Source: Candidatus Thorarchaeota archaeon (GTDB lineage: Archaea > Asgardarchaeota > Thorarchaeia > Thorarchaeales > Thorarchaeaceae). Taken from it: a stretch of DNA of 19,283 bases. The translations under genes were made by a program, and so were the position numbers. Under the pieces are notes generated by a model. It saw nothing but the letters and a program-made list of their open reading frames with translations. It ran no database searches and had not been told where the DNA came from. Location: positions 1 to 19,283 of the forward strand of contig JAOUFI010000039.1 in assembly GCA_029858305.1 (NCBI GenBank), read 5' to 3'. Each line of letters opens with the position of its first letter. The stretch's first letter is position 1. Positions 1 through 15,945 of this stretch are shown one piece after another.

Positions 1-479
1 CTCTTGATGCGCCCTCGTTTATCCTTCAACATCTCAGAAAACTTCTCCACTGTGAAAGTATCATCAAGAGGTTCTGGCCCAAGTTTTGACAACTGCTTAT
101 GTTTTGCAAGGTCATTCGATTTTATGAGATGCACGTGCCCAAACCACCAATGATGTATCCATACTTGTTCCCCAGTATCAAGAGTAAGCACAACACGTTC
201 ACGTTCGGGATTTGGTTGTTCATCATGATTGTGTAGGCGAATCTCACCACCCATTCCGAGATTAAATGCAAGAAACTGATCACAGTCAAGACAAACGAGA
301 ATCCACTTGCCACGTTGCTGGGCATCTTCAATACGACAATCTTTGATAGAATCTTTGAACTTCTTCACTGTTGTATTTAGACACTTGGGTTGATTCGCAT
401 GGGCGTTTGTAATTACTTTGCCCTTCAGAGCTTCTTTCATGCTCTTTGCAAGTACATAGATATCTGGTAGTTCTGGCAT
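1..479 (-). CDS. fpg: Fpg/Nei (MutM-like) H2TH-family DNA glycosylase, N-terminal part; runs off the window start
   Basis: Not in the ORF track. Manual translation from ATG at 479 gives MPELPDIYVLAKSMKEALKGKVIT...QQRGKWILV...FNLGMGGEIRL...WWFGHVHL...LSKLGPEPLDDTF...RGRIK, open to the window edge. The N-terminal PELP catalytic motif, RGK, LGMxG and LGPEPL are Fpg/Nei hallmarks. SD GGTGAT at 486-491 (minus). Confidence 0.9.
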   Translation of the reverse strand, partial: MPELPDIYVLAKSMKEALKGKVITNAHANQPKCLNTTVKKFKDSIKDCRIEDAQQRGKWILVCLDCDQFLAFNLGMGGEIRLHNHDEQPNPERERVVLTLDTGEQVWIHHWWFGHVHLIKSNDLAKHKQLSKLGPEPLDDTFTVEKFSEMLKDKRGRIK

Positions 480-510
480 TCTCTAATCACCATAGACATC
501 TGATTCAACA

Positions 511-577
511 GCGTATCACAATTTGAAGTTTCAGAACTATGTCATACATAGATTGTATACTGAAACTTGATACCCGC
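511..577. repeat. Long imperfect inverted repeat (hairpin) between the acyl-CoA dehydrogenase gene and fpg
   Basis: Nested arms: GTATCA 513-518 / TGATAC 568-573; AAGTTTCAG 526-534 / CTGAAACTT 560-568; CTATGT 537-542 / ACATAG 546-551 around a CAT loop. Function unknown. Confidence 0.6.
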
Positions 578-675
578 AGCCCATCAATGATAGGCATTAG
601 AACCAATTCACTGTTGTTTGAGAGCCCAGCAAATGTTGTTGATCCATCATCAAACCATATTCTGCTTAAACTCAA

Positions 676-1875
676 TCAGAAATCAGGTGGCTCGTTGTTA
701 TACCATTTTGGCATCTTGCTCATCGCAGGTTCGTATCCCGAGAGCACATACCGTGCAAGTATCAGTCGCTGAACTTCACTTGTTCCTTCATAGATTTGGT
801 ACAGCTTAGCATCTCTGAACAACTTCTCAACAGGGTATTGGTCGATGTATCCATATCCACCGTGGATTTGAACGGCTTCACTCGCAACCTCCATAGCTAC
901 ATCAGTAGCGAAGGCCTTAGCAGCACTTGCGGGGATTGTGGAATCTCCTACAAAGTCAGCTGTCCACGCAGCCTTTAGATACATCAATCGGGCAGCCTCT
1001 ATTTTCACATACATATCTGCTAGTTTGAACTGAATGACCTCGAAATTGTTGAGTTTTTCACCAAAAACCTCTCGTTTAGTTGTATAATCACGGGCAAATT
1101 CCATAGCAGCTCTGGCAAGACCTGTAGCAAATGCAGCAATCGCGGGACGTGTCATTGCAAATGTCTTCATTGCTATCTTGAAACCTTCTCCTTCAGAGCC
1201 CAACATGTTTTCGATAGGGACTTTGGCATCTCTGAACATCACTGCAGATGTTGTGGAAGCCTTATGGCCCATCTTCTCAACTGGTCGACCAGTCTTCACC
1301 CCAGGAGTGTCAGCGTCAACAATGAAAGCGCAGAGTGCTTTGTGCCTCTTGCTTGGATCAAGACTTGCAAAAACAGTGAATGTATTTGCATGTGGAGCGT
1401 TGGTAATCCAGAATTTGGAACCATTCAAGACATAATGGTCGCTCTCTCGTTTGGCTCGGGTCTGTATACCAGCAACATCAGACCCCATGCCTGGCTCTGA
1501 ACAGGCGAAGCTGATGAACTTCAAATCTTCTGTAAGTGGTCGAAGGTACTTCTCTTTTTGTTCAGGAGTTCCAGCCACCAGAATTGGTTCAGCACCTAGA
1601 GAGTTTACATAGATGCTCGTCGTCATTCCTGCGCAACCGGCGGCCATTTCTTCCACCGTGATACATTGTTCAATGGACCCTAGGCCCAGTCCTCCATATT
1701 CCTTCGGAATTGAGAGGTTCATAAGTCCTTCTTCCCAACACTTTTTAATTATTGAACGTGGGAATTCCCCAGTCTTATCATAGTAGTGAGCGTAAGGAAT
1801 CATATACTCCTGTGCAAATGCTCGCGCCTTGTTCCTAAGTTCCTGCTGTTCCTTGGATAGATTGAAATCAATCAT
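676..1875 (-). CDS. Acyl-CoA dehydrogenase (short/medium-chain-like)
   Basis: 399 aa with IPKEYGGLG, CSEPGMGSD, LNGSKFWITN, REVFG, VQIHGGYGY and RDAKLYQIYEGTSEVQR (catalytic Glu in IYEGT). SD-like GAGGGAG just upstream. Confidence 0.96.
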   Translation of the reverse strand: MIDFNLSKEQQELRNKARAFAQEYMIPYAHYYDKTGEFPRSIIKKCWEEGLMNLSIPKEYGGLGLGSIEQCITVEEMAAGCAGMTTSIYVNSLGAEPILVAGTPEQKEKYLRPLTEDLKFISFACSEPGMGSDVAGIQTRAKRESDHYVLNGSKFWITNAPHANTFTVFASLDPSKRHKALCAFIVDADTPGVKTGRPVEKMGHKASTTSAVMFRDAKVPIENMLGSEGEGFKIAMKTFAMTRPAIAAFATGLARAAMEFARDYTTKREVFGEKLNNFEVIQFKLADMYVKIEAARLMYLKAAWTADFVGDSTIPASAAKAFATDVAMEVASEAVQIHGGYGYIDQYPVEKLFRDAKLYQIYEGTSEVQRLILARYVLSGYEPAMSKMPKWYNNEPPDF

Positions 1876-1920
1876 TATGCTCCCTCAAAGAATAATGTGT
1901 CCTCTAAACCTTCGCCAAGT

Positions 1921-1928
1921 TGTATAAG
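1921..1928 (-). promoter_or_regulatory. Putative TATA box for the acyl-CoA dehydrogenase gene
   Basis: Minus-strand CTTATACA about 50 bp upstream of the ATG, in a 92-bp intergenic gap. Confidence 0.35.
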
Positions 1929-1967
1929 TCAGTTACTAAAGGGCATCCTAGATTTCAATTTGTGAAG

Positions 1968-4232
1968 TCATGAGGTTGAGGTGATATGTTTCACAACTTC
2001 TGGCAGGCTCCATTTCAACTCCAACTCCAGAGCGCCGCCTTCAGGACCAGGACATCGTCTTACACAAATGCGGCAAGCCACACATAGCCAGAGATCTACC
2101 TCCACGGTACCAAAACCTGGAGATTCTTTTTCAAGGATGATCTCATTTGATGGTTTTTGCGTAGCAAGGTTCTGAACAGTCTTATAGAAAAGCAATCGGT
2201 TGGAGGGTAGTTGAGAGAGAGCCTTGTCAGAGATTTCGAAGAGTTTAGGTATCTCGATTCGTCGTTTTAGTTCTATTGCGTGTTCAGGACAAGCAATCTC
2301 ACATGACTTGCAACCCAGACACCTCGATTGTTCCCACTCTATTGTCCCGAATCCAAGAAGAGGAGCATATCCCATTTGACTTCTATATTCATCAAGAACA
2401 GATGGCACATCGATATCCAATAAATCTTCAATAGTCACCTTTGGTCTAGTACTTGGAATCTTTGCACGGGTTCGATAAGTGAGTAAGACGGCGGAGCGTA
2501 TCTTATCCTCCACATCGCTTAGGGTGGATTCGTCAATTACCGCACCCTGTACACGAACTGATGTGAGCTTGTCACGTGCTTTTGAAAAGACTTCTAGCGC
2601 GTTGGCTAATTTGCCAATGTCCGAAGCTTTCAAATCACTCAATATCCTCTGAAGTTCCCCCTTAGCCTCGGATAGCTGCAAGGCCAGACCACTTGTAGTC
2701 TGCATTGTGATTTCAGACTCTGAGAGGGTCCTTGGTACATCATAGAGAAGATACCCATGACTCTCACCGGCAATCGTGAGAAGTTCATCACGCTTCATTC
2801 TGAGTAGATGGCGGAGTATTCTATCTGAAGGGATGTTTGTCCTCTCTGCAAGATCGTGTACTGTTAGAGCACCTAATTCTCGAATGAGAATCAGAATTGT
2901 ACCTCTCTCAAGCTCGTTATCAAGATAGGTATCCATCATGGTCTTGTAGACTTCAGGGTCAAGCTTTTCACCATAGACATTAGTACCTGACACAAGGGTG
3001 GGACCCTTTTCTAGAGTGATTTTAAGACGAAATCGGGCAAAGGCTTCAAGTCCTGCAGATATTAGCAGCTTGAGATTATCAGCATCTTCAGAAGTCTGGG
3101 CAGTTAGCAAAGCCTCTGTGACACTGTCAACGGTTTCTCGAAGCTTGTTAATGCTATCAGATAAAAGAGCTTCATTGTAAGCCCCAAGTATCTTTAGACG
3201 TTCAAGTATTGCTTGTAGTCTGCCGAGAGCTTCGTTCATAGTGTCAGCAGTTTCACCTTCTACTGATTTTACCATCCCCCGGACTTGTTGAACAATCCTT
3301 TTCATAAGTAGTGTTGAGTTTTGTGTTTCTGTGAGCACTCTAGAGAAAACAGGAGCGTCACCATCAAGACCAACCATCTCAACTTCCCCTCTCTGAATCA
3401 TGGTCACTAGAGCGTCCTGAATAATTTGAGATGGCGTTTGCATGAGTTCTCCAATTTGCACAACGGTCTTAGATCCCATTTTCGAAAGAATGAACAGAAT
3501 TACTCCACGATTGATTTCAGTAAGTAGATTCTCTTTGACGAGCTTGTTGAACCGCGCATCATCAATTCGACCTTCTCTCTTGCCTCGTTTTACCTGTGCA
3601 ATTGATCTTAATCCGGGACCATAGCGAGTCTGGGATCCTAGTTTTTGAAGGTCGTCTAGAGCCGAGTCAGGATCTTTTTCGACTTTTCCTTTGGTTTCTT
3701 CAAGGGATTCAGCGAGCGTGACCAATTCAGACCTTGCAGATTCCGCTTCGGTTTCAGCAGCCTTCTCAAATTCATCTGTGATTGACTCGATTTCAGAGAT
3801 TAAATCAGATATGGTTGACATGGTTGATGTCATATCGATGTCTACGCTGACATCTTTGTGTTCCTCTATCTCAGTCATTCTACTGAGGGTGTCTGTAAGT
3901 ATTTTGTTCAGTGCTTTCAATGATACAGATTCAACTATTGACAAAGCCTGTTCAAGACTAGAGATTGATTCTTTGAGAATGCCTCTGTCGTTTATCTCTG
4001 CAGTTATATTACTCTTCTTTACAGCTTCTAGAAATTTCTCGAAATAGGAATCAGGAAAAGCGAGGATTGCATCAGTTAGGGGAGCAAGTTCTTTCTTTAG
4101 ATTTTCAAGCTCATCCTTGACTCTGCTGATGGGAATAGTAGACTCTTCTTTGAGCCCGCTCAGTGTTAGTATCATATCCAACATTCGTTGTCTCTTAGGT
4201 GCAATTACCTTCTCAGGAGTTGCTTGGCTCAC
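1968..4232 (-). CDS. Large uncharacterised Fe-S protein: helical/coiled-coil region, two winged-HTH-like repeats and a C-terminal 2[4Fe-4S] ferredoxin
   Basis: Track ORF 1968..4250. The likelier start is GTG at 4232, which forms a GTGA overlap with the upstream stop and has SD GGAGGTGA. Repeats EINRGVILFILSKMGSKTVVQIGELMQTPSQIIQDALVTMIQRGEV and ELERGTILILIRELGALTVHDLAERTNIPSDRILRHLLRMKRDELL. Fe-S motifs CLGCKSCEIACP and CVACRICVRRCP. Confidence 0.85.
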   Translation of the reverse strand: MSQATPEKVIAPKRQRMLDMILTLSGLKEESTIPISRVKDELENLKKELAPLTDAILAFPDSYFEKFLEAVKKSNITAEINDRGILKESISSLEQALSIVESVSLKALNKILTDTLSRMTEIEEHKDVSVDIDMTSTMSTISDLISEIESITDEFEKAAETEAESARSELVTLAESLEETKGKVEKDPDSALDDLQKLGSQTRYGPGLRSIAQVKRGKREGRIDDARFNKLVKENLLTEINRGVILFILSKMGSKTVVQIGELMQTPSQIIQDALVTMIQRGEVEMVGLDGDAPVFSRVLTETQNSTLLMKRIVQQVRGMVKSVEGETADTMNEALGRLQAILERLKILGAYNEALLSDSINKLRETVDSVTEALLTAQTSEDADNLKLLISAGLEAFARFRLKITLEKGPTLVSGTNVYGEKLDPEVYKTMMDTYLDNELERGTILILIRELGALTVHDLAERTNIPSDRILRHLLRMKRDELLTIAGESHGYLLYDVPRTLSESEITMQTTSGLALQLSEAKGELQRILSDLKASDIGKLANALEVFSKARDKLTSVRVQGAVIDESTLSDVEDKIRSAVLLTYRTRAKIPSTRPKVTIEDLLDIDVPSVLDEYRSQMGYAPLLGFGTIEWEQSRCLGCKSCEIACPEHAIELKRRIEIPKLFEISDKALSQLPSNRLLFYKTVQNLATQKPSNEIILEKESPGFGTVEVDLWLCVACRICVRRCPGPEGGALELELKWSLPEVVKHITSTS

Positions 4233-6394
4233 TCGCTCACCTCCCTCCACTTGCCAGCAGTCCCATCATGGACAGGAGTCGGGCCTAAATCTTTGGCGCG
4301 TGTTACCATTTCATTAACAGCCTTAGTAAAGCGTTCAGGTTCAGCGCTGAACATTCTAAACATGCCTACACGGTTTCCTTTCCATCCAATCGCATTCAAA
4401 ATATCTCGAGCAACATCTACTTGCACTTGAGCAATCTCGTTACCATTCCCTCCGATATGACAACGGTCCTTCTCACAAGCCGCAATCATCACTGTGCTAG
4501 CACCATGTTCGAAGGCTTTGAGAATGTCTATGATACTTACACGACCTGCACAGGGAACTGGAATTAGACGTGTGTTTGCTGGGTATTCCATTCTCCTAGT
4601 TCCAACAATATCTATTGTTGATACTGAACACTCCTCGCAATAGAAACAGAGTGTAATTGGATTCTCTGGGCCAGCATCCTCAAGTACCGCAGCTATCTCA
4701 GACCATAGTTGATCATTTGAGAGAAAATTAAGTTGAGTGGCACCAGAAGGACATAGACTTTGACACACACCACATGCATGGCAATTCAAGGTATCAATTG
4801 CTGCCTTGAAGAGAATCTTCTGTTCCTCATCAGCTTCTTCAGCTTCTGTCTGTTCAATCATGAGAGGAACCCCACGTGGGCACTGCTGAGCACAAAGACT
4901 ACATCCAACACAATCATCGACATTTAGAACTGCTCCACGCGCAATTGCCTGAATAGTTCCACCCTGAAGCTCATTATGAATCATGAGAGTGCCAGCCTGG
5001 GCGTCTGTGATAGCTTCAAACACAAACTGTGGACGCGTGATCCCTCCAACTGCAACAACCCCACGCCGACGTGTTTCATTACGACGAAGTTTCCCATAAA
5101 GCTCCTTTACATATCCATCATCTTCAACTGCATAACCTAGAGTTTCAGAGAGTTCCAATATTCCATCTGCAGGAAGAATAGCAGAAGAAAGTACCAGCAA
5201 ATCAACTGGAATTTCCAGATACTTGTCAAGCAGAGAGTCATAGACGCGTACGTATGTTTTACCCTCATGCTCCCAAGTCATGCTGACCCGGCCACGAATA
5301 TAGTCTACTCCTTTCTCACGGGACTCCTTGTATATCATCTCATTCTCAAAGGGGACCCTGATGTCCATGTAGACTATTCGAACAGTAGCATCTGGTATTC
5401 TTTCTAGAAGCTCCAATGAATTGTCAATTGCAAAGGTACAGCATAATTTGCTGCAATCCTTCTTGTAATCCTCGGATCTGCTACCAACACACTGTACCAT
5501 CACAATTTCTTTGATTGGTGCACCATCAGAAGGACGAGCTAGCTTACCCTCAGATAGCATACACGAGAGTTCGAATTGTGTGATTACATCAGGATTCTTT
5601 CCATAGTGGTACTCATCCATTAATATGGGTTTGAACTCCTTGAATCCAGTTGCTAGGACAATGGCGGAAGTGTTCAATGTCTTTTCTTCGTCATCATCTG
5701 ACAAATAGTGTATGGAAAAGTTACCTTGTTCTCCTGAAACAAATTTGACGCGAACCTTGGTCTTTATTGTAATGGCTTTATTATTCCTGATTGCTTCCAA
5801 TCGGTCGTTTAATATCTCTTTGCCGGATTTTCCTGTCGGAGCAACTACAGGAAGACTTCTAACATGTCCGCCAAGTTCCTCCGTGATTTCTAGAAGAGAG
5901 ACCTTGTAGCCGAAATTCGAGAGGTTAAGCGCAGATTCGATACCAGCAATACCTCCACCAATGACTGTGACATGAGCAGGGATACTTTTCTGTTCTAAAG
6001 ACCGTTTTACTGCTTTCGCGGATCTTGCAAGTGTACCTCGAATCATATCTGCGGACTTTTTACTTGCTTGATCAATATCCTCGTGTACCCAAGCCGAGTG
6101 TTCTCGAATGTTCACATATTGAATCTGGGTGCTATCAGTATCATGTGATTTCAGATATTGATCGATTCGTGGTTGGATTTTTTGACTTGAGCAGGCAGCA
6201 ATCACAAGATGACCATCATTTGCCTTGAGAAGCTCTGCGATTTTAGCAAGACCTTCTTCCTGACAGACAAAATCATGAACCGCCACCGAAGATGCTAGAT
6301 TCATTTTACTGACTTGAGTTTCTAGGAAGTCATATTTCAACTGAAGTTGTTTGCCGCAAGTGCAGATGAGTGCTGCTGATTTATTATCATCCAT
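4229..6394 (-). CDS. hdrA: Heterodisulfide reductase subunit A-like flavoprotein fused to a C-terminal MvhD/FlpD [2Fe-2S] domain (QmoB-like architecture)
   Basis: N-terminal CTCG...C...AACS...NIREH; FAD motif VIGGGIAG; ATG; QCVGSR...CSKLCC; ferredoxin motifs CVGCSLCAQQCP and CHACGVCQSLCP; MvhD motifs FYCEECS, VPCAGRV, AACEKDRCH and final LGPTP. Confidence 0.92.
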   Translation of the reverse strand: MDDNKSAALICTCGKQLQLKYDFLETQVSKMNLASSVAVHDFVCQEEGLAKIAELLKANDGHLVIAACSSQKIQPRIDQYLKSHDTDSTQIQYVNIREHSAWVHEDIDQASKKSADMIRGTLARSAKAVKRSLEQKSIPAHVTVIGGGIAGIESALNLSNFGYKVSLLEITEELGGHVRSLPVVAPTGKSGKEILNDRLEAIRNNKAITIKTKVRVKFVSGEQGNFSIHYLSDDDEEKTLNTSAIVLATGFKEFKPILMDEYHYGKNPDVITQFELSCMLSEGKLARPSDGAPIKEIVMVQCVGSRSEDYKKDCSKLCCTFAIDNSLELLERIPDATVRIVYMDIRVPFENEMIYKESREKGVDYIRGRVSMTWEHEGKTYVRVYDSLLDKYLEIPVDLLVLSSAILPADGILELSETLGYAVEDDGYVKELYGKLRRNETRRRGVVAVGGITRPQFVFEAITDAQAGTLMIHNELQGGTIQAIARGAVLNVDDCVGCSLCAQQCPRGVPLMIEQTEAEEADEEQKILFKAAIDTLNCHACGVCQSLCPSGATQLNFLSNDQLWSEIAAVLEDAGPENPITLCFYCEECSVSTIDIVGTRRMEYPANTRLIPVPCAGRVSIIDILKAFEHGASTVMIAACEKDRCHIGGNGNEIAQVQVDVARDILNAIGWKGNRVGMFRMFSAEPERFTKAVNEMVTRAKDLGPTPVHDGTAGKWREVSE

Positions 6395-6403
6395 CTATCA
6401 GTT

Positions 6404-7660
6404 TCACTTCCTACTCTGGATTATTTTGGATACTGCAGCTCGGGCTTGGGTCACACTCTCTGGAACTTCTGCAGGACCTAATGCTGTACCACAAGCATAG
6501 ATGTGGTCACCCACTACAACTTCGTTTTCTGATATTGGATCTGCGATTCCAATAAATCCGCTTGCTGATTTTAACCCAAGACTTTCGATGAGTTTGGCTG
6601 TACCTTCTGGCGGTTCTAGAGCTGATGAGAGAACGAAAAGGTCCACTGAAAACTTCAGATATTTATTCAAGAGCGAATCATACACGACTATATCTAGAGA
6701 GCCATCTTCACCCGGTTGAATAAGGGATACCCGTCCTCGAATAAATTCAACACCGGACTCTCGAGCTGTACGATAATATCGTTCGTATCTGTCATAGGTA
6801 CGAATATCCATATACACAACGCTGACTTGAACTCCATCTCGTTCTTGTGTGAGAATATTGGCGTGTTTGAGAGCAAAAACACAACATATCTTTGAACAGT
6901 AGGGATAATAGTTCTCATCCCTGCTTCCAACACACTGAACCATCATGACTCTTTTCACAGGTTTTCCATCAGATGGTCTCACAGGCACTCCGCCGGACTC
7001 TCCATTTGGATCGATTATCTTGGCAAGTTCTAGTTGTGTGATAATGTTAGGATGTTTTCCGTAGCCATACTCAGTCATGTTAACTGGTTTCATTTCATGA
7101 TAACCAGTAGCAATAATGATGTCTGATACTTTGACTGTTTCTTCAGTGGGCTGTGCATTCAAGCGGATAGCCTTGGTAGGGCACTCCTCCTCAGCCTGTT
7201 TTGCACCATCGTCATTTATTGAGGGAGTATAAACAACTGCTTGAGGTTGGCACTGTGGAGATAATAGGTGGAATGCCTTTGACTTTTCTATGCAAAGACC
7301 GCACATCGTACATTTCTTTGGAATAATATACTGTGGACCTACCTTCAGTGTTACTGTGAATTGGCCCGGCTTGCCAGAAATGGTATTCACTTCACTATTC
7401 ATTTTCAGTGATATATTGGGCTGATCAATAAGCGCACTCCTATAGAAGCACTTTCGAATTCCGGGACGCCATCGGTTTCCTTCAAAACAGTAAAAACAAT
7501 CATCGGTTGGAAATGCCTTGTAGAGGTCAAGTGCATTACCACCCACAGTTTCTTGTCTTTCAACAAGGATAGCCTTAATTCCTGAATCTGCTAGCTCTAC
7601 TGCTGCAGTCATGCCTGCAACGCCAGCCCCGATGATGAGAACCGGATTAGACGTACTCAT
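6404..7660 (-). CDS. hdrA: Short HdrA-like FAD/Fe-S protein (QmoA-like architecture)
   Basis: IIGAGVAG FAD motif at the N-terminus, FPTDDCFYC, inserted CTMCGLC...CP, IATGY, RPSDGK, QCVGSR...CSKICC, YMDIRT, FIRGR. ATG at 7660 has SD GGTGAGG; GTG at 7669 is the alternative start. Confidence 0.9.
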   Translation of the reverse strand: MSTSNPVLIIGAGVAGMTAAVELADSGIKAILVERQETVGGNALDLYKAFPTDDCFYCFEGNRWRPGIRKCFYRSALIDQPNISLKMNSEVNTISGKPGQFTVTLKVGPQYIIPKKCTMCGLCIEKSKAFHLLSPQCQPQAVVYTPSINDDGAKQAEEECPTKAIRLNAQPTEETVKVSDIIIATGYHEMKPVNMTEYGYGKHPNIITQLELAKIIDPNGESGGVPVRPSDGKPVKRVMMVQCVGSRDENYYPYCSKICCVFALKHANILTQERDGVQVSVVYMDIRTYDRYERYYRTARESGVEFIRGRVSLIQPGEDGSLDIVVYDSLLNKYLKFSVDLFVLSSALEPPEGTAKLIESLGLKSASGFIGIADPISENEVVVGDHIYACGTALGPAEVPESVTQARAAVSKIIQSRK

Positions 7661-7665
7661 CCGCC

Positions 7666-8544
7666 TCACCCAGTCAAATGATTGAGAATAGAATCAGCAG
7701 GAACTCTGTTCATGCTGAGTCCCACATCTTCTTCAGTCATCCCTAAAGCTAAGCCAAGAATCTGAGGGTACAGAAGTACTGGTAAGTTGAACTCCTCACC
7801 ATATGATTCTTTCAATCCTAGCTGTTGTAAATCAAGCTGATTTCCACAGGCTGGGCAGACCACAGCAATGAATTCCGCTCCTGATTCTTTCATTGATTTT
7901 AGCTTATCACGAGCAAGTCGGATTGCTAGGTTTTCGTCAACAGGCAGAACTGTTGCGCCACAACATTGTTTCCACAATGGGTACTCTATAACTGATGCAC
8001 CGGTTGCTTGAACCAGCTGGTTCAGATATTCTGGTCTAAATTCGGTCACATCAATAGGGCGAAGAAGATGACAACCATAGTGAATGGCAATGCCAACTCC
8101 ATCTAATGGCTTAGTGATCTTTTTCCCTATCTCTTCAACACCAATATCCGTATACAGAGCTTCAACAAAATGGCGGGGAGTAATCGTGCCTTTGAATTCC
8201 AAATCATCCTTCTTGAGAATATCGTTAACTTTCTTCCTGTAACCAGCATCGTGCTTGAGAAAATGGTAGACATCCTTGAGTGATCCAAAGCATCCGTTGC
8301 AGGGTGTAACAATGTCATGACCATTCTTCTCTGCAATAGCTAGAGTTCTTGCATTTATGGTGAGCCATCCCAGATAGTCAATTGCACGAAGATTGGGACT
8401 TCCACAACAGCCGACACCTTCCATGTATTCCAACTGGATATCATATGTTTCTGCAACTTTCATCATAGCCGCTTCATAGTTGGGGTAGTTTGCAGGCACA
8501 CTGCAACCCATGTATAAGTTGTATATTGGCACCCTACTCACCAC
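7666..8544 (-). CDS. hdrB: Heterodisulfide reductase subunit B (CCG-domain protein)
   Basis: Two CCG domains: MGC...GCCGSP...PCNGC and HYGCH...QCCGA...VCPAC, followed by QLD and PQILGLALG. Overlaps the hdrC stop. Confidence 0.95.
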   Translation of the reverse strand: MVSRVPIYNLYMGCSVPANYPNYEAAMMKVAETYDIQLEYMEGVGCCGSPNLRAIDYLGWLTINARTLAIAEKNGHDIVTPCNGCFGSLKDVYHFLKHDAGYRKKVNDILKKDDLEFKGTITPRHFVEALYTDIGVEEIGKKITKPLDGVGIAIHYGCHLLRPIDVTEFRPEYLNQLVQATGASVIEYPLWKQCCGATVLPVDENLAIRLARDKLKSMKESGAEFIAVVCPACGNQLDLQQLGLKESYGEEFNLPVLLYPQILGLALGMTEEDVGLSMNRVPADSILNHLTG

Positions 8545-9076
8545 CCTCCACTAGTTTGTTCGTTCGTGTTTCCTTCAGGATGGTTTTCACAGCTTCGACA
8601 GATAATCCAGGAACGGCGGGCTCAAGACCCAAGTCTTCACGCTCCCAATCAGCTGTCACTGTGTAGAGTTGACCTTTCTCAAGGAGTTCTTTCCCTAAGC
8701 CTATGATATTGGAAGGAACTTTCCCTTCTTCAGCAGCGAGGTTCTTACAATCAAAGAAAATATCTGTTACTCGAACTTTCTGCGGGCAACGTTCCTGGCA
8801 CTGATAACAGGTCAGGCACAGCCATATCTCACTGGAGGAGAGAACCTCCTCTTTCATTCCGAGAATGATCATCCGGATGAGTTGATGCGGTTTGTACTGC
8901 CAAATATTAGCAATCGGACATGCTGCGGTACATGTCGAACAAGCAAAACACGCAGAGAGTTCTTCGCTGTTTGGCATACTTTTGATTTGTTCTCGAAACT
9001 TTGTATCTAGCTTCGACATATCAATTGGGTCAATCAAAGTAGTTGGTGGGCCACTTTGTTCTTCCATTTCAGTCAT
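8534..9076 (-). CDS. hdrC: Heterodisulfide reductase subunit C
   Basis: CFACSTCTAACP and WLCLTCYQCQERCPQKV [4Fe-4S] motifs; 180 aa; directly upstream of hdrB. Confidence 0.95.
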   Translation of the reverse strand: MTEMEEQSGPPTTLIDPIDMSKLDTKFREQIKSMPNSEELSACFACSTCTAACPIANIWQYKPHQLIRMIILGMKEEVLSSSEIWLCLTCYQCQERCPQKVRVTDIFFDCKNLAAEEGKVPSNIIGLGKELLEKGQLYTVTADWEREDLGLEPAVPGLSVEAVKTILKETRTNKLVEGGE

Positions 9077-9135
9077 AGGTTACACCACAACCATTTGATG
9101 AGTTTCTCGGGGAGTATTCAGCCATTTAATGCCTA

Positions 9136-9174
9136 TATTAAAAGTTTGTAGCCATGACATATTCACTACATGTC
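9136..9174 (-). promoter_or_regulatory. Putative hdr operon promoter (TATA box) with an upstream palindrome
   Basis: Minus-strand TTTTAATA at 9136-9143, preceded by CAAAC, about 60 bp upstream of the hdrC ATG. GACAT-N9-ATGTC at 9156-9174. Confidence 0.45.
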
Positions 9175-9178
9175 CAAG

Positions 9179-9370
9179 TTACAGTTCTTCACCAAAGCCT
9201 CTCCGGTAAAGTAGAAACAAAATACCAGAAATTCCCAAGGAAACAGTTACTACATAGGCAAAGAACTCGAATATACTCATCATGTTTATTGGATACATCA
9301 AACCACCAATTATGGCGAGCATAATACAAATGACACCGACAACTTGGAATATGACACGATGACCGGGCAT
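9179..9370 (-). CDS. Small hypothetical membrane protein (two predicted TM helices)
   Basis: Track ORF 9179..9427; ATG at 9370 (MPGHR) avoids overlap with the upstream ORF. Two hydrophobic stretches, VIFQVVGVICIMLAIIGGLMY and FFAYVVTVSLGISGILFLLY, are followed by RRG. Confidence 0.6.
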   Translation of the reverse strand: MPGHRVIFQVVGVICIMLAIIGGLMYPINMMSIFEFFAYVVTVSLGISGILFLLYRRGFGEEL

Positions 9371-9395
9371 GATTTGTGTCTGAACTGACAGCCTC

Positions 9396-9692
9396 TTAGG
9401 ACTTTCTGTCGATAGACATTGCCTCAATTATTGATTCGATTCTCGTGCAGACACCCTCACACGATCGAGTGGTCAAATCAAAAATCTGCATAGTCATCTG
9501 TATCAGGTAAGATTTTAGATTCTCTGGGTCAGCGTGAAGATTGGTTAGTATTGGACCGCCATCATTAGTTAGTTTCAGAATCCCTGTAAGGGCGATGAGG
9601 AATTTTTCATGGGACGACCTAATTTCATTGATTTGTTGATTCAGGTAATCTAATAGATGGTTTAAATCAGCAAGGACTTGCTCATTTTTCAT
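9396..9692 (-). CDS. Hypothetical protein (helical)
   Basis: 98-aa ATG ORF overlapping the gins51 stop, co-oriented, with an amphipathic helical pattern. No recognised motif. Confidence 0.6.
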   Translation of the reverse strand: MKNEQVLADLNHLLDYLNQQINEIRSSHEKFLIALTGILKLTNDGGPILTNLHADPENLKSYLIQMTMQIFDLTTRSCEGVCTRIESIIEAMSIDRKS

Positions 9693-10326
9693 CTATTGAG
9701 CCACCATCCTCAAGCACTACTCGAACCGCAGTGCCATCACGTAGCCATCTTCTAGCATTTGCAGTAGGTATTGTTGCAACATCCTCTTTCTTGAATGGAC
9801 CATAGGTCTGTTCATCAAGCCCCATGAAAGCTTCATCAATAGGCCTCAAAAATTTTACAACTATTTGGTCCATCTCATCAGATTCTTCAACAGGTACTTC
9901 ACCCTGTTGCTTTGCTGCTTTTCCCTTCTTGGCCTTGCTCTTTGTGCGAGGTGGAACTGTTCCTGCTAGTGATTCTGTCATAAATTCCGAGTGAGCATCG
10001 AATGCACGCTGAATTCGATTATAGAACTCCTCCTCAGCAAGAATCATATCACTTGTTGGACGACGACCTGCAAGTGCTGATTTCATGATTTTATCTCGCC
10101 GAAGTGCAAGCAAATCTTCGAGCATGAATTCCAGATTGAGCGCTTCTTGTGTAAGTATATCGGCTTGGAGTGAATCTTCCGCACTTGTCGATGCCAGTGA
10201 CAAGCGGACATTAGAGAGATATGCAATCATCTTGCTCAATCGAAGATCGGCCAGATTTTGAAGCAATTCGTTCTCCGTTTCATCTTCCCAAGCGCTCTTG
10301 ATGTCATCATAGTTTTTATCACTCAA
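9682..10326 (-). CDS. gins51: GINS complex subunit, Gins51 (Gins15) type
   Basis: Helical A-domain (LALRRDKIM, EEEFY) then C-terminal B-domain VVKFLRPI...FMGLDEQTYGPFKKEDVATIPTANARRWLRDG. Canonical position after pcn-priS. Likely start is TTG at 10326, overlapping the priS stop; the track's first 30 aa lie inside priS. Confidence 0.88.
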   Translation of the reverse strand: MSDKNYDDIKSAWEDETENELLQNLADLRLSKMIAYLSNVRLSLASTSAEDSLQADILTQEALNLEFMLEDLLALRRDKIMKSALAGRRPTSDMILAEEEFYNRIQRAFDAHSEFMTESLAGTVPPRTKSKAKKGKAAKQQGEVPVEESDEMDQIVVKFLRPIDEAFMGLDEQTYGPFKKEDVATIPTANARRWLRDGTAVRVVLEDGGSIDEK

Positions 10327-11692
10327 TTGAAGCAACCCCCTTGCAGAGTGCAAACACAGCTGCAGCCATAGGCAACTCAACGGTTTCCCCCTTGGTAAAC
10401 GGTCCATATGTTTCATCTTTTACCTTGAAAGAGGGCACAATCGGTCCTTTAGGAAAAATAACTTTCATAGTGCCCTGATTAAAAGCAATCGATTCATTGA
10501 ATGGATTAAAATCATCAAGTTGGTTTCGAGTGAGCAAAGATACGGCAAAGCCAGTCTTGCCGTTCAAGCTGCCGATGAGTCGAATTACCCTGTGAATATC
10601 ATGGGTGACAGGTCTGTCAATCTCACTACCATAGAGCTCGACAGCTTTCTCTGCAATTTCCTGCCAAGATTTCACTCCCACACGCTCCACATTCTTACTG
10701 AGGATAGGCCTTGTTCGTAAAAGGCCATCTAATGCGTCAGCCTTATTTTCTTTCAGAGAAGAAACCCATTTCTCTGTTCCTGAGTACGAATCAATAGCAC
10801 GAATGAATTCAACCATAGCATCAGCAATTCGTCCAGTCCAACCTGGAAAATCACGACCTGGCATCCATTTGGCGCCACTCTCCGTAACTATTGCCTTATC
10901 GCCTTTGAACCCAAGACCCATCACATAATGGACTATTTCTACTCGTGCATTAGAATCTAGCAAAAATACTTGAGGGTCACGGACTCGCACATGGTAACCC
11001 CTATGTCCACTATAATTCAGCTGAATTTTATCTGGGTCAAACCCGAAATCGCCAACCAGAAAATCGTCGTAGAGTTTTATTGTGTATTTTCTTGCTTCAT
11101 TGAGGCATTTTTCACAAATCCATTTTCTGGTACCAAAACTAGCATTTCCACATACGGGGCAAGTTTCTGGGGGTGTACCTGTTCCTGTTTTATGGCAGTC
11201 TGAGTTGTTGCACCGCCAAGCGTCATGATCGTTCGAGCACTTTAGTTCCAAATGGTCAGCATCTATATCAAAGACCAGTTCGGCGCCTTGCCACTCTTTT
11301 TCATGCATATGTGTAGCAATAGGAACTTTATAGAAAGCTGCAGAGTGGTATACGCTCTGGGGTGCAGAGTTAGATAGGCCTGTTAAGAGAGTTTCTCGAG
11401 ATTGATAGCCAATATGACGAATCCAACTAGTGGATTTAATCTCTCCAGACCCACAGTTTGGACATTCTTTCAAAGGCTGAAAGGATTTTCCTGACTTTCC
11501 ACAACCGTTTCGGGCGTCTTTGCCTTTTCTTTCGATACAATGCCAGTTATGTTCCCAAGTCTGCAAAGCAAACTCTCTAGCATGAACATTGTCAGGTACA
11601 TCTATGGATTCAGGGTTTTCTGAGTAATACTCATGAAACAGAAGTCGGAGCTTCATTATTGTTGTTGTTCGTCCCTGATTCCTTGTTGACAT
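10319..11692 (-). CDS. priS: DNA primase small (catalytic) subunit with extra zinc ribbons
   Basis: REFA, WQGAELVFDIDAD, YSGHRGYH and IDRPVTHDIHRVIRLIGSLNGKTG AEP motifs; C-terminal YGPF domain; SD GAGGAG upstream. Confidence 0.96.
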   Translation of the reverse strand: MSTRNQGRTTTIMKLRLLFHEYYSENPESIDVPDNVHAREFALQTWEHNWHCIERKGKDARNGCGKSGKSFQPLKECPNCGSGEIKSTSWIRHIGYQSRETLLTGLSNSAPQSVYHSAAFYKVPIATHMHEKEWQGAELVFDIDADHLELKCSNDHDAWRCNNSDCHKTGTGTPPETCPVCGNASFGTRKWICEKCLNEARKYTIKLYDDFLVGDFGFDPDKIQLNYSGHRGYHVRVRDPQVFLLDSNARVEIVHYVMGLGFKGDKAIVTESGAKWMPGRDFPGWTGRIADAMVEFIRAIDSYSGTEKWVSSLKENKADALDGLLRTRPILSKNVERVGVKSWQEIAEKAVELYGSEIDRPVTHDIHRVIRLIGSLNGKTGFAVSLLTRNQLDDFNPFNESIAFNQGTMKVIFPKGPIVPSFKVKDETYGPFTKGETVELPMAAAVFALCKGVASIE

Positions 11693-11804
11693 TGAAGAAG
11701 ACCACTCCTCTTGTGAACTTTTATGTTTCGACTATAAGAACCATTGAGGTATTGACGAGATTATAGTAATACTAGGTTTCATTCTTTGCAATCAGCGAAA
11801 TAGC

Positions 11805-12566
11805 TTAGGGCCTTCGTTCAACACGCGGTGCTAGGATGAAACTGATATTGCCAGCCTCTGCTATCGCAAACTCCAGCATCATTGGTTTGTTCCCAGTAAG
11901 TTGAAGAATTATGCTATCACTAGGAATAGATTTTGATATCTCAGCCAAGTAATTAAGTGCGTACATAGCAGTTGACGGCCCACTGCCGATTTTCAACTGG
12001 AACAGAGCAGGATCTTCGCCCTCAGTAGAGAGAATGACTTGTGCCTCGCCTGTATCACCTTCACCTGAAAAGGTGAGTGTGTTTTTCTCAACGCTAATCT
12101 TGACATGACTTGAAACCACGCCTATATCCTTGATTGCTTGCTTGAACGCATCTGCGTACATTTCAGCCTTGACTTCAAAAGCCATACTTGGTTTACTTGT
12201 TGGGCTATCTGGAGGAGTTAGAAGCTGAAGTTTGAACTGTCTTTCTGCTTGACCAATCATCTTGATTTCTAATCGTTTATCGTCCTCATCAAGATTAAAC
12301 TCTAAGCGTTCATCGCCACCCATTCGTTTACTCACTCTGGCAAGCTCATCAATACCCAAGCAGATATCATGTTCTCCTTTGCATGCATACTCCTGAAAAA
12401 CAGCAGCTGGAAGGTTCAAATCAACCATTGCTGCTTTGGATGAGTCTAGTTGCCGTAGTGTCATTCCAGATTCGGATACTTGAAGATGAGCCTCAGTAAG
12501 AAGTGTTGCTAAGGCATCAACTATCTGTTTCCAAGTTTTTGTACTGTCTAGAGTTGCGTGGAACAT
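11805..12566 (-). CDS. pcn: PCNA sliding clamp
   Basis: 253 aa; LDSSKAAMVDLNL, FQEY, YALNYL, PMMLEF and FILAPRVE C-terminus; SD GGAGG. Confidence 0.97.
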   Translation of the reverse strand: MFHATLDSTKTWKQIVDALATLLTEAHLQVSESGMTLRQLDSSKAAMVDLNLPAAVFQEYACKGEHDICLGIDELARVSKRMGGDERLEFNLDEDDKRLEIKMIGQAERQFKLQLLTPPDSPTSKPSMAFEVKAEMYADAFKQAIKDIGVVSSHVKISVEKNTLTFSGEGDTGEAQVILSTEGEDPALFQLKIGSGPSTAMYALNYLAEISKSIPSDSIILQLTGNKPMMLEFAIAEAGNISFILAPRVERRP

Positions 12567-12713
12567 TGTACTTTTCCTCCAGTTAGATGAAAGACCATTG
12601 AATAGGTGTGGTCTGGACAGATATTAGAAGTATCAACAGCAATTAAAATGTACTTCTCGGAAGATTCAGGCTTGAGAAAGTAATGGATTGTTTCTAGCAT
12701 TCTATTTCCTTCA

Positions 12714-13085
12714 TCAACTCATTGTTTTAGTAACCCTCTCCTCAAGCTCCAGAACTTCTTTGTACAGAGCGATGTCGAGCGTATCAATATCATGCGCGAG
12801 AATTGCATTTAGCCAAGGAATCTTTGTTTCCCCGTCTGTCTTCTCTGTCACATCACCAATGATGAGATACTTCTTCTTAGGTTCAAGGGTTCCCTCTATA
12901 GTAATCCAAATACTTCCCGCCTTCTTGAAGTCTTCATCGAAGAGATCCTGTACAAGAGCAGAGCCAGGACTGGAATCTACAACAATTCCAAGTATTCTAA
13001 CAGGCCCACGAGATTCCGGGGAAATATCGCGAATAGTTGTGAGCCGAGCTGGCTTTTTACGAATGAATTTTTTCTCTTCGGTCAA
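12714..13085 (-). CDS. rpa3: Small OB-fold protein, replication protein A subunit 3 (RPA14)-like
   Basis: RKKPA...IRDI...VRILGIVVD...IIGDV...DIDTLDIALYKEVLELEER matches my recollection of the Thermococcales RPA14 pattern (RRKPA...ISEI...IG...DLEALEEIRELER): a single OB fold plus a C-terminal trimerisation helix. TTG start. Confidence 0.72.
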   Translation of the reverse strand: MTEEKKFIRKKPARLTTIRDISPESRGPVRILGIVVDSSPGSALVQDLFDEDFKKAGSIWITIEGTLEPKKKYLIIGDVTEKTDGETKIPWLNAILAHDIDTLDIALYKEVLELEERVTKTMS

Positions 13086-13191
13086 ATCGCAAGCGCCCTT
13101 TTTGTTATCCTAAGTATTATGAGATACCATCTGCCTTTGGGTGAACCATCTGTAGGGCTATAAATGTGTCAGTCATTCTACCGTGATTAGA

Positions 13192-13521
13192 CTATCCACC
13201 ATAGTTGCGCCATGTGTGTTTGCAGCTGGTGCAGCGATAGAACTCTGTTGCCCCTTCATCACCACGCCGTGTCTGTACAGTCCAATAATATGCATCAGTA
13301 TTGTTACATTTAGGGCAGATTGCTTTTGTGACAGGCATTGGGATAGAGTCATCTTCAACAACAATAATTCTATCACGCGGACCTTTCTCAAGATTCTGAG
13401 AAACACTCAATTCACCCCGGATTTCTTTGATATGTTCGCAACTCCGGCACCTCAAGACTCGTTTTCCGTCTTCTTGTGTGAAAGGTACCATCATGGCACC
13501 ACATTTGTCACAGAATTCCAT
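13192..13521 (-). CDS. tfs: Transcription factor S (RpoM/Rpb9/TFIIS-like transcript cleavage factor)
   Basis: MEFCDKCG...CRSC and CPKC...QTRRGDEG...FYRCTSCKHTWR zinc ribbons with the acidic DE hairpin. Start at MEFC (13521) preferred over the track's 13563. Confidence 0.95.
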   Translation of the reverse strand: MEFCDKCGAMMVPFTQEDGKRVLRCRSCEHIKEIRGELSVSQNLEKGPRDRIIVVEDDSIPMPVTKAICPKCNNTDAYYWTVQTRRGDEGATEFYRCTSCKHTWRNYGG

Positions 13522-13598
13522 GGGATTGCACTCCGCTTTTGAGCTGCTGTGTTCATATGTCAATTAAGCGTTTTGACTTGTCCATAGAAAGTAAGTTG

Positions 13599-14012
13599 TT
13601 AATGCGGAAGATGTGTAATATTCAATTCCAAGAAATGCTGGAAAGAAGTAGCAGCAAGATTGCCTTCCTTTTCTCGACTGGTCTTACTATCAATGTCAAG
13701 TAAACTTGCGAGAGAATCAGCCATGGAAGGGATAGTTATCTTATCAGTCATCCATAGGTATGCCATAATAGCCTCGTATGCATCAGCAGCCTTTCCGATA
13801 TCACTTCTCCGATTCATATGTTGATATACAGACGTTCCTCGTATTGCTCGAGCAAGAACACTATCTCGAACCTTTTCACCTGTCGTATAGCCTAGAACTA
13901 AGGTCTTAGCAAGAGAATAACATAGGTTTACGAGATTATCACCAACCTTAGCTAAGCCCTTGTCATTCATAATCTGCTCGATGCTTGTATGTCTGACAAA
14001 AGACGTCCACAT
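13599..14012 (-). CDS. Archaeal ribonuclease III-like family protein
   Basis: DKGLAKVGDNLVNLCYSLA...KVRDSVLARA...ADAYEAIMAYLW resembles the RNase III LxxxGD...DxxEA signature. Location next to rpoL is typical for this archaeal family. SD GGTGAG. Confidence 0.75.
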   Translation of the reverse strand: MWTSFVRHTSIEQIMNDKGLAKVGDNLVNLCYSLAKTLVLGYTTGEKVRDSVLARAIRGTSVYQHMNRRSDIGKAADAYEAIMAYLWMTDKITIPSMADSLASLLDIDSKTSREKEGNLAATSFQHFLELNITHLPH

Positions 14013-14042
14013 TTGGGACTCACCAGCATAGCATTTTGATCT

Positions 14043-14333
14043 TCAATCAATACTATGGTCAGATGTCGCTTGATTGAACTTCTTTCGAAACTCTTCGGTG
14101 CGAGCAAGCATCTTTTCAAGAGCTTCACGAAGAACTACATTTGCTTGGCGACGTTTTGTTCGTAGAGTAACTATCGGACTAGCTAGTAATGGATGTTCAA
14201 TATTATAACCAGCAAATTCTACAGCAGGCTCTTCGAGAAGGGTCTTACGAAGGAGATTAGGAAATGAATGTCCTTCTCCACCAATCTCGAAAATCATCTC
14301 AAACTTAGTATTCTCTATTGTTCTTGGTTTCAA
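14043..14333 (-). CDS. rpoL: DNA-directed RNA polymerase subunit L (Rpo11)
   Basis: GEGHSFPNLLRKTLLEEPAVEFAGYNIEHPLL motif; TTGA overlap with the csl4 stop. Confidence 0.95.
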   Translation of the reverse strand: MKPRTIENTKFEMIFEIGGEGHSFPNLLRKTLLEEPAVEFAGYNIEHPLLASPIVTLRTKRRQANVVLREALEKMLARTEEFRKKFNQATSDHSID

Positions 14334-15097
14334 TCACGACGCCTCCGTGTGTCACTTCCTCTTCTATCAGGTCGACTTGATTTTCTATCACTAAAACGTT
14401 TATCTCCATCCCTCTCACGACGCCCCCCTTCGAAGCGTCTTCCGCCACGATGGTCACCTCGGTCATAATCACGATTATCGTAAGACCTTCGCCTCGGTGC
14501 TAGATCTGGTCTTGCTTCAAGTCCATAGTTCTGACCATAATCACTAGCAACTTCGCGGGTTTCTCTGTTTTCACATCTCAAGCAAAACATGTTATTGTAA
14601 GTGGTAAGAGTCAGAGGATGACCGCATCTAGAACATCTCGAAAAGACCACTCCAAGATCGGGTCCGATAACACTTACAGTAGTGGGAATCTCATGTGTGT
14701 TCAATGCAACAGCACGGACAATATCACTCACTCTCAGCACATCATGCATACTTTTAATGAAGCGGCGTGTCACATTGCTAATATGAATCTCACCTATGAG
14801 ACCGCTGTGAAAATCTTCACCATTCCTGCGTACAACTGCAATCTCAGCTCGTTGTTCATATGCGTTGACAACTTCGCCCATTAGGATGTCACCCTTGACA
14901 GGGAGTGCTAGTTTCATCTTACCATCTGTTTGAAGGACCTTGATAATTCTCTCTTTGAGGTCCATTGAAACTGCGCCTGGTGCAGCTGCAAATACAATGC
15001 CATCTTTTTCATAGGTGCCGTAGCTAGGACTTAGCTCTTCTATCACACATAGCTGGTCTCCAGGAACCACGATATCACCACTCTTAACGTCAGCCAT
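14330..15097 (-). CDS. csl4: Exosome RNA-binding subunit Csl4 with an R/D/G-rich C-terminal tail
   Basis: VVPGDQL...GTYE N-terminal domain, S1 domain (GEIHISNV...DIVRA), LGVV-x3-CSRCG...CLRC...ETRE zinc ribbon; adjacent to rpoL. ATG at 15097 overlaps the methylase stop (track start 15106). Confidence 0.93.
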   Translation of the reverse strand: MADVKSGDIVVPGDQLCVIEELSPSYGTYEKDGIVFAAAPGAVSMDLKERIIKVLQTDGKMKLALPVKGDILMGEVVNAYEQRAEIAVVRRNGEDFHSGLIGEIHISNVTRRFIKSMHDVLRVSDIVRAVALNTHEIPTTVSVIGPDLGVVFSRCSRCGHPLTLTTYNNMFCLRCENRETREVASDYGQNYGLEARPDLAPRRRSYDNRDYDRGDHRGGRRFEGGRRERDGDKRFSDRKSSRPDRRGSDTRRRRD

Positions 15098-15728: not shown

Positions 15729-15810
15729 ATGATATCACCTGAAGAGTTGTTTGTAAACACATAATACAGTGATGGCTAAATGAATAGTGCTGTTGGTACT
15801 CACTGAGTAA

Positions 15811-15887: not shown

Positions 15888-15945
15888 GTTTAAGAGTCAG
15901 AATTGTAGGTTTCATACCTTAAGTTATAGATAGGAGTATTGTGGG

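Follow-up and report, generated by a model that had tools for sequence, protein, structure and literature searches.

A winged-helix ferredoxin protein encoded after hdrA-mvhD in Thorarchaeota as a probable subunit, and candidate electron-input adaptor, of an Hdr-type complex

The window analysed here comprises 19,283 nucleotides (positions 1 to 19,283 of the forward strand) of contig JAOUFI010000039.1 from a Candidatus Thorarchaeota archaeon (assembly GCA_029858305.1). Its minus strand carries, from 9076 down to 1968, a run of five co-oriented genes encoding the heterodisulfide reductase (Hdr) subunits HdrC and HdrB, a short HdrA, a fusion of HdrA with the adaptor MvhD and a protein of 754 amino acids (aa) that we call X. 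Conserved gene linkage, module fusions and an enzyme-bearing variant suggest that X is very probably a subunit of an Hdr-type complex and, with a modest preference on our side, that it acts as the electron-input iron-sulfur (Fe-S) adaptor of this complex. Full-text literature searches returned neither a description of such a subunit nor a characterised Hdr class containing it, in keeping with the original prediction, made from the DNA letters alone, that the cluster belongs to no class already characterised. X would be an undescribed subunit type added to a well-studied enzyme class.

The linkage of X to hdr genes was followed through its homologues. Close homologues bear the Thorarchaeota name. 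Among 1.84 billion cluster representatives searched, no more than 76 matched at E <= 1e-3, and the full-length relatives at 22-26% identity carry Helarchaeota or Lokiarchaeota names. In a survey of 400 genomes of the phylum, X was matched in all 85 genomes of the window's family (85/85, a few as fragments or in the variant form only) and was full-length in three further small families (3/3, 2/2 and 2/2 genomes); several other families encode only a protein of ~160 aa matching its ferredoxin module. The gene is not the orphan it was first taken for, as it belongs to a small, lineage-restricted family conserved in Asgard archaea. It lies directly after hdrA-mvhD in 30/30 loci with readable context (17 Thorarchaeota, 6 of the variant form and 7 Helarchaeota/Lokiarchaeota), hdrA-mvhD being directly upstream in 17/17 Thorarchaeota loci with upstream sequence, and the predicted association with hdr genes elsewhere was thereby borne out. 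In the window, hdrA-mvhD and X are joined by the GTGA overlap originally described (g4232 t4231 g4230 a4229), with a GGAGG upstream. In the seven Helarchaeota/Lokiarchaeota-named loci, where X is 24-27% identical to that of the window, the order is always short hdrA, hdrA-mvhD, X, hdrC, hdrB (7/7), which places X inside the operon; in one of them, L076, the overlap between hdrA-mvhD and X is 4 nt, and a single nucleotide separates X from hdrC.

The HdrA proteins encoded beside X were compared in a quick IQ-TREE tree (LG+G4) of 52 HdrA units, from which units covering <300 profile positions were left out, including the long HdrAs of loci L072 and L073. The eight short X-adjacent units formed one split (SH-aLRT 96), the six long X-adjacent units formed another (SH-aLRT 99), and the X-adjacent HdrAs stood apart from other HdrA paralogues of the same genomes. 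As the short and the long HdrAs each form one split, the X-linked hdr module appears to have been inherited as a unit.

The X gene (1968..4232, minus strand) encodes 754 aa from GTG 4232, the position at which its homologues begin, or 760 aa if GTG 4250 is the start. Four parts were delineated, all on the minus strand and given in 760-aa numbering. The N-terminal helical domain (residues 18-210, 3621..4199), defined from the structure model, is followed by repeat 1 (residues 211-424, 2979..3620), made of helices and a first winged helix (wH1, ~245-305), and repeat 2 (residues 425-600, 2451..2978), made of helices and a second winged helix (wH2, 443-507). The last part is a split 2x[4Fe-4S] ferredoxin module (residues about 634-750, 2001..2351). 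Repeats 1 and 2 form a weak internal repeat (E 4e-6), and the ferredoxin module, too, is duplicated within itself, the unit being helix-LAxKxP-IxVP-GFGT-CxxCxxCxxxC; its motifs C644xxC647xxC650xxxC654P and C723xxC726xxC729xxxC733P stand ~68 residues apart. X holds exactly eight cysteines, that is, one ferredoxin unit. Its Pfam matches are confined to a split dicluster ferredoxin at 637-734, plus sub-threshold helix-turn-helix (HTH) matches at ~451-494 and 254-288. In an AlphaFold model built on a 14-sequence alignment (pLDDT 73, pTM 0.39), an all-helical scaffold spans residues 40-600 and is followed by a low-confidence linker at 601-633 and the ferredoxin domain at 634-747. The X profile found only generic ferredoxins and a weak AspA winged-helix match among PDB sequences, with none for the scaffold, a Foldseek search of the model against the PDB gave no match at E <= 1e-3, and an ESM Atlas search with residues 1-610 gave no usable match. 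The Pol III subunit RPC62/RPC82 was considered as a homologue and rejected (E 1.2e-3, TM ~0.1), the likeness being a generic one of multiple winged helices and helices. The fold matches obtained were all generic (winged helix, ferredoxin, helical bundle), and those to helical bundles (VIA-align, Z ~10) were also set aside, as they fall within the uninformative range for helical proteins.

Modules of X recur in fused or free form beside MvhD and HdrA. In P0159 (294 aa), whose cluster has one member named Bathyarchaeia, an X-type ferredoxin module occupies the C-terminus of an MvhD protein (FlpD 8-130, ferredoxin 174-277). A metagenome scan for it returned 80 loci, ~15 of them with the full-length fusion; nine were examined, and in 8/9 an HdrA gene immediately precedes the fusion gene, as part of hdr clusters. 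In P0218, from Thermoplasmata-named contigs, the X-type ferredoxin module ends a double-HdrA protein. In 4/4 other Asgard genomes fetched, the gene for the free ~160-aa protein is less than 2 kb away from a tandem HdrA pair, directly after hdrA-mvhD in two and ~1.6 kb from the pair in two. When residues 351-505 of X were searched, 8 of the 12 tested matches were MvhD/FlpD proteins carrying the module as a C-terminal extension, and the winged-helix repeat 2 is homologous to these extensions of uncharacterised 'long MvhD' proteins. Fusions of X modules to MvhD and HdrA are of the kind that indicates physical association.

A variant of X exists in which an enzyme module is built in. The variant P0124 (972 aa) keeps the N-terminal domain of X (its residues 1-162, 38% identity), and its C-terminal half is 64% identical over X residues 425-760, and X residues about 212-424 are exchanged for a GltD/NfnB-like module (NF009410, E 6.7e-143) composed of Fer4_20 and Pyr_redox_2. 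This pattern was found in seven genomes of the window's family (G317, G318, G342, G348, G349, G350 and G352). In 6/6 fetched genomes, the variant gene lies between hdrA-mvhD and a gene for an acyl-CoA dehydrogenase (ACAD), the same slot that X occupies, and no genome of the 400-genome survey held both X and the variant. As the variant carries a GltD/NfnB-like module in this slot, X would sit on the donor side of the complex; the variant is the best argument for this placement and would mark repeat 1 as the place where the donor is held. The slot after MvhD thus appears to behave as an electron-input slot. The original prediction had taken this slot for the input position, here filled by a Fe-S/winged-helix protein, and the variant supports it.

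The winged helices could also belong to a redox-sensing transcription factor, with a Fe-S part, that regulates the hdr operon or other genes. We consider this highly improbable. Residues 451-494 do match MarR_2, TrmB, MarR and HTH_24 weakly, the folds of the winged helices resemble those of MarR, TrmB and Z-alpha domains on superposition (Z ~9; for wH2, rmsd 1.2-1.7 A over ~62 aa), and some homologues bear a JGI name of the type 'ferredoxin/DNA-binding MarR family transcriptional regulator', but the HTH scores all fall under their Pfam cut-offs (MarR_2 25.1 vs 27, TrmB 23.4 vs 25.6, MarR 20.1 vs 24.6, HTH_24 17.6 vs 21.9). The predicted recognition helices are little conserved among 14 homologues and not consistently basic, their net charge, a crude proxy, ranging from -2 to +2 in wH1 and from -3 to +4 in wH2. 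Moreover, the X gene is translationally coupled to genes of catalytic subunits and lies mid-operon in the Helarchaeota/Lokiarchaeota genomes, an enzyme module can take the place of wH1, and the same winged-helix module serves as a C-terminal extension of MvhD proteins. A winged helix-turn-helix acting as a protein-protein interface is described for BamF, a long MvhD adaptor belonging to class II benzoyl-CoA reductase, where it contacts the input-module subunit BamI in a cryo-EM structure (bioRxiv 10.64898/2026.04.10.717634, in the part of the preprint available).

The direction of electron flow through X is a separate matter. The ferredoxin module of X could be a low-potential output conduit, a tethered ferredoxin like VhuB/MvhB or FwdF, docking on the inserted ferredoxin of the short HdrA and passing bifurcated electrons to a partner held by the winged helices; we judge this unlikely. 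The best PDB sequence matches of the module are indeed FwdF (E 1.7e-13) and the VhuB/MvhB-type polyferredoxins, and its fold matches (Z 8-9) include FwdF at Z 9.0. VhuB, encoded in an mvhD operon, binds the HdrA ferredoxin domain via a ferredoxin-fold insertion (PMC13518236, available part), and X likewise has an insertion between its two cluster motifs. The inserted ferredoxin of the short HdrA keeps one cluster motif, and an added relay would make sense there. Against this, the variant carries an NAD(P)H module, which would be a poor sink for electrons at the level of ferredoxin without another donor, NAD(P)H being typical of the mid-potential donors in Hdr/Flx-type bifurcation. Fusions to MvhD, the input adaptor, are also known for both kinds of module in X, and X is one ferredoxin unit with no polyferredoxin chain.

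Several points weigh against the role of X as an input adaptor and were considered together. FwdF and MvhB, to which its ferredoxin module is most similar among PDB sequences, act in methanogens on the low-potential output side. The position of the module in P0218 is that of MvhD, for which it could be a substitute instead of a partner. The analysis yielded no donor for the flavin-free form of X, and the structure model is of moderate quality, with pLDDT 60-70 in the ferredoxin module beside the overall values given above. As whole-region synteny from PCNA to ACAD is common to the Thorarchaeota loci, these are weak as independent evidence and amount to little more than one observation for linkage; the seven loci of the distant families are the stronger test. 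The evidence is comparative throughout, and it is from such comparison that we infer that X binds, which way electrons flow and what the donor and the acceptor are.

X may instead be mainly a structural organiser of higher-order Hdr assemblies, or a tether to the electron-transfer flavoprotein (ETF) and ACAD, with its clusters a minor relay. This appears improbable to us. Some 600 of the 754 residues form the helical scaffold, whose helices near the N- and C-terminal ends are predicted to bundle together, ACAD follows X in 20/20 Thorarchaeota loci with downstream sequence (14/14 canonical and 6/6 variant), and polyferredoxins determine the architecture of super-assemblies in methanogens (PMC13518236, available part). 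However, the best-conserved parts of X are the ferredoxin module and wH2; identity to the Helarchaeota/Lokiarchaeota sequences is 39% in the ferredoxin module and 16-19% in the scaffold, and none of the eight cluster cysteines varies in the 14-sequence alignment. In the Helarchaeota/Lokiarchaeota loci no ACAD gene follows X (0/7), and within Thorarchaeota the link is inseparable from general synteny.

The two HdrA proteins encoded upstream of X complement each other in their domains. The short HdrA (6404..7669, minus strand, 421 aa) aligns to residues 143-560 of the HdrA in 5ODC and has neither the N-terminal nor the C-terminal domain. It has a thioredoxin reductase (TrxR)-like FAD domain with GAGVAG, a cluster motif C246/C258/C262/C263 and an inserted ferredoxin domain reduced to one cluster motif (C120, C123, C126, C163-P), and its C58/C61 align with C194/C197 of 5ODC HdrA. 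The long HdrA-MvhD (4229..6394, minus strand, 721 aa) has an N-terminal Cys domain (C11, C13, C44, C68), an FAD domain lacking both the inserted ferredoxin and a Cys at position 197, a C-terminal ferredoxin of the 2x[4Fe-4S] kind at 495-548 and the MvhD/FlpD domain at 582-704 (Pfam FlpD, E 1.3e-32). The GxGxxG of the HdrA FAD domain and the C-x11-C-x3-CC cluster motif are present in both flavoproteins. Their closest PDB sequences are methanogen HdrA (5ODC, 8RVU, 7BKB and 9SFI, E 1e-60 to 1e-76; E 1e-64 to 1e-76 for 9SFI, 8RVU and 5ODC), and the sHdrA-type structure 6TJR was matched by an operon flavoprotein at E 7.8e-41. The best NCBIfam model for both is HdrA2, far under its equivalog cut-off (442 vs 1100; HdrA itself 311 vs 1400). 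By analogy with what has been proposed for tandem HdrAs of anaerobic methanotrophic archaea (ANME), the two proteins may form a complementary heterodimer.

On these grounds the five genes would encode a soluble flavin/iron-sulfur complex of the Hdr type with a heterodimer of complementary HdrAs at its core. The long HdrA would bring the N-terminal cluster domain, the C-terminal ferredoxin and the fused MvhD, the short HdrA the Cys197-type ligand and the only inserted ferredoxin domain, and HdrC and HdrB would form the high-potential branch. X would join them as a sixth type of subunit, confined to some Asgard lineages. Its ferredoxin module, with two [4Fe-4S] clusters, would relay electrons into or out of the long HdrA at its MvhD [2Fe-2S] end, and its helical scaffold and two winged-helix modules would hold a donor module by protein-protein contact, without DNA binding. 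In the variant, the GltD/NfnB-like NAD(P)H:FAD module would be the built-in donor, and electrons would pass from NAD(P)H to the clusters of X, to MvhD and to the HdrA FAD, where they would split, one branch leading to ferredoxin via the short HdrA and the other to HdrC/HdrB. With the flavin-free X of the window, the donor would dock in trans.

HdrC (8534..9076, minus strand, 180 aa) has two CxxCxxCxxxCP motifs and is soluble, with a maximum KD19 hydropathy of 1.39; it matches Pfam Fer4_8 (E 5.7e-12) and scores 105.6 bits against TIGR03290 CoB_CoM_SS_C, under the cut-off of 160. HdrB (7666..8544, minus strand, 292 aa) matches Pfam CCG in two stretches (E 5.3e-31) and scores 276 bits against TIGR03288, under the cut-off of 345. 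Its two CCG domains are intact, with all ten Cys of the two motifs, the ligands of non-cubane [4Fe-4S] clusters, in place (motif 1, C14..C46C47..C82xxC85; motif 2, C158..C194C195..C230xxC233). The ligands are thus as complete as was first stated, but the conclusion then drawn, that HdrB should reduce a disulfide, is not secure, because the CCG-type subunit BamD of class II benzoyl-CoA reductase hands its electrons to ETF and not to a disulfide (bioRxiv 10.64898/2026.04.10.717634, available part).

For the same reason, an ACAD as part of the high-potential branch is worth testing. A sixth co-oriented gene, which had been overlooked when the five-gene run was correctly listed, encodes a Bcd-like ACAD (676..1875, minus strand; Pfam and NCBIfam) after a 92-nt gap from X, with its own Shine-Dalgarno-like sequence and a possible TATA. 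As a proven partner ACAD was rejected, its adjacency being confined to one family with whole-region synteny; on this within-family synteny it is a possible functional partner of the complex. A broader and rather doubtful extension by analogy is that X and the related winged-helix and ferredoxin modules form a plug-in docking system, in which one core of HdrA heterodimer and HdrBC accepts exchangeable donor cassettes and the HdrBC of Thorarchaeota serves ETF/ACAD in place of a disulfide. The cassettes would be an NADPH module built in (variant) and a partner docking in trans (flavin-free form), and the Thorarchaeota HdrBC would feed or draw on the ETF/ACAD couple, with ACAD encoded next door.

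The junctions of the operon bear out the overlapping or near-abutting ends reported for its five genes. Besides the hdrA-mvhD/X junction, hdrC and hdrB overlap by 11 nt (read from the sequence), hdrB and the short hdrA have a GTGA in common, with an alternative ATG start 9 nt further downstream, and 9 nt separate the short hdrA from hdrA-mvhD. A candidate archaeal BRE/TATA element, AAACTTTTAATATA (9134..9147, minus strand), was read by eye ~58 nt upstream of the hdrC ATG and is possible as a promoter element. Pfam annotation of the 21 open reading frames (ORFs) of >=80 aa found no hydrogenase, Fdh, Flx, Apr or Mcr gene in the window, as had been stated for mvhAG, fdhAB, flxABCD, aprAB and mcr. 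None of the five operon proteins has a transmembrane-like segment (maximum KD19 hydropathy <=1.74), and an Rfam scan of the window gave no match.

The rest of the genome (assembly 88.9% complete) was searched for possible partners. It holds eight MvhD-domain genes, many further hdr clusters and at least three [NiFe] hydrogenase large-subunit genes, and contig C55 carries an mvhD-mvhG-mvhA operon with its own MvhD. The system is therefore hydrogenase-less, as first described, at the level of the operon but not of the genome. The proposed genome search accordingly found mvhAG on C55, and the best AprA match reached 45 bits against a cut-off of 641.75. McrA (PF02249) and ComA (PF02679) had no match in this incomplete genome, in which the controls matched, and DsrC was likewise not found in it. 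Genes for EtfB and for EtfA with an N-terminal ferredoxin domain lie on contig C88, and a cluster on contig C117 encodes a GltD-like module 51% identical to that of the variant.

Some further features of these contigs were observed. On C117 (about 1886-9460), the GltD/NfnB-like module interrupts an HdrA-like gene; hdrC, hdrB, a further two HdrA genes and mvhD belong to the cluster too, which is similar to the ANME-1 fusions of HdrA with NfnB. On C55 (L163, 205-2561), mvhD-mvhG-mvhA is immediately preceded by genes for an aldehyde:ferredoxin oxidoreductase and for a small ferredoxin. In L076, two tandem 377-aa proteins (12645-14986, minus strand), each with a C-terminal dicluster ferredoxin and an N-terminal part without Pfam match, are encoded downstream of the Helarchaeota/Lokiarchaeota-type operon and are followed by a gene of the HpaB/4-hydroxybutyryl-CoA-dehydratase family.

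Upstream of hdrC in the window, two small minus-strand ORFs at 9179-9427 (82 aa) and 9396-9692 (98 aa) separate hdrC from gins51, and Thorarchaeota loci have them conserved; the 82-aa ORF matches ABC2_membrane weakly and includes a hydrophobic segment (KD19 2.69). From 9682 to 19283 the window holds a dense cluster of replication and information-processing genes, namely Gins51, PriS, PCNA, TFS, an RNase III-like gene, RpoL, Rrp4, a methyltransferase, Cdc6/Orc1 (15946-17193, plus strand) and the PolD small subunit (17201-18808). A repeat search of the 217-nt gap preceding cdc6 gave no clear origin repeats, only short two-copy matches. As listed, the ORFs of PriS and Gins51 share 98 nt (10319-10416), and the Gins51 start is probably further downstream. 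In many Thorarchaeota loci (L007, L008, L009 and L011-L014, about 780-1550) a second PCNA paralogue (~62% identity) lies upstream of the first, and none of the ORFs at the matching place in the window (12567-13190) has a Pfam match.

Asgard archaea are the closest known relatives of eukaryotes, their energy conservation is debated, and their genomes hold many Hdr paralogues of unknown role. Accounts of Asgard metabolism mention only hdrABC/mvhD genes (PMC6478937) or multiple HdrA copies (PMC11237513) in the parts of these papers available. The exchange of a winged-helix repeat for an NADPH flavoprotein offers a testable handle on the electron donor. If the link to ACAD/ETF is true, Hdr-type bifurcation would be tied to the fermentation of fatty acids or amino acids; HdrBC working with ETF/ACAD would be an Asgard-specific link of beta-oxidation or enoyl-CoA reduction with ferredoxin, and X would then support winged-helix folds as protein-docking parts of redox complexes.

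Among known systems, QmoABC has a short FAD subunit, a long FAD-ferredoxin-MvhD subunit and a membrane subunit QmoC (HdrC-like plus cytochrome b). The 421-aa and 721-aa proteins share the layout of the two FAD subunits, and it is for the layout only that the first description of the operon as QmoAB-like holds; the top named sequence matches are methanogen HdrA2/HdrA, with no QmoA or QmoB model among the top matches. The operon also lacks a membrane QmoC (the qmoC model scored 59.5 bits against 300, on the 180-aa HdrC only), whereas HdrB is present, and the genome has no AprA reaching the cut-off and no DsrC.

Compared with the MvhAGD-HdrABC and Fdh-Hdr systems of methanogens, the two CCG domains of HdrB, the two [4Fe-4S] motifs of HdrC, the HdrA FAD and the MvhD adaptor are alike. 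The operon differs in having HdrA as two complementary proteins, with MvhD fused to one, in having no hydrogenase or Fdh, with no [NiFe] hydrogenase genes encoded with this MvhD in the window, and in having the extra subunit X. It also differs from the CoB-CoM Hdr of methanogens in that HdrA, HdrB and HdrC all fall under the NCBIfam equivalog cut-offs and in the lack of McrA and ComA matches in the genome. FlxABCD-HdrABC and NfnAB are NAD(P)H-linked bifurcating systems, with which the variant shares a GltD/NfnB-like NAD(P)H:FAD module plus Fer4_20 beside an MvhD-HdrA core; here, however, the module is inserted in the scaffold of X, and the X of the window is without a flavin module. Set against MarR/ArsR/TrmB regulators, X is under all family cut-offs.

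In ANME, HdrA heterodimers have been proposed from the complementarity of the N-terminal domain and Cys197, and NfnB-like modules are grafted into Hdr proteins (Chadwick et al. 2022, PMC9012536, available part). The two HdrAs of the operon show the same complementarity, and the tandem-HdrA heterodimer of ANME would be a better published analogy than QmoAB. The NfnB-like insertion in ANME-1 lies inside the inserted ferredoxin of HdrA and not, as here, inside X, and an X-like subunit is not mentioned in the available part of that paper. BamF, as described in the available part of the preprint cited above, resembles X in a winged helix tied to an MvhD-type adaptor, contacting the input module, and its complex has an HdrA-type bifurcating core; there the winged helix lies within the MvhD protein, whereas here two winged helices and a ferredoxin stand on a separate 754-aa protein. 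The homology of the winged helices of X is to uncharacterised long MvhD proteins, BamF being compared by description. The polyferredoxins VhuB/MvhB and FwdF, so far as the available part of PMC13518236 describes them, share with X a 2x[4Fe-4S] fold with an insertion, a place beside mvhD and a bridging position between Hdr and a partner, but have three to four ferredoxin units where X has one joined to a 600-aa helical and winged-helix scaffold; unlike them, X probably acts on the input side.

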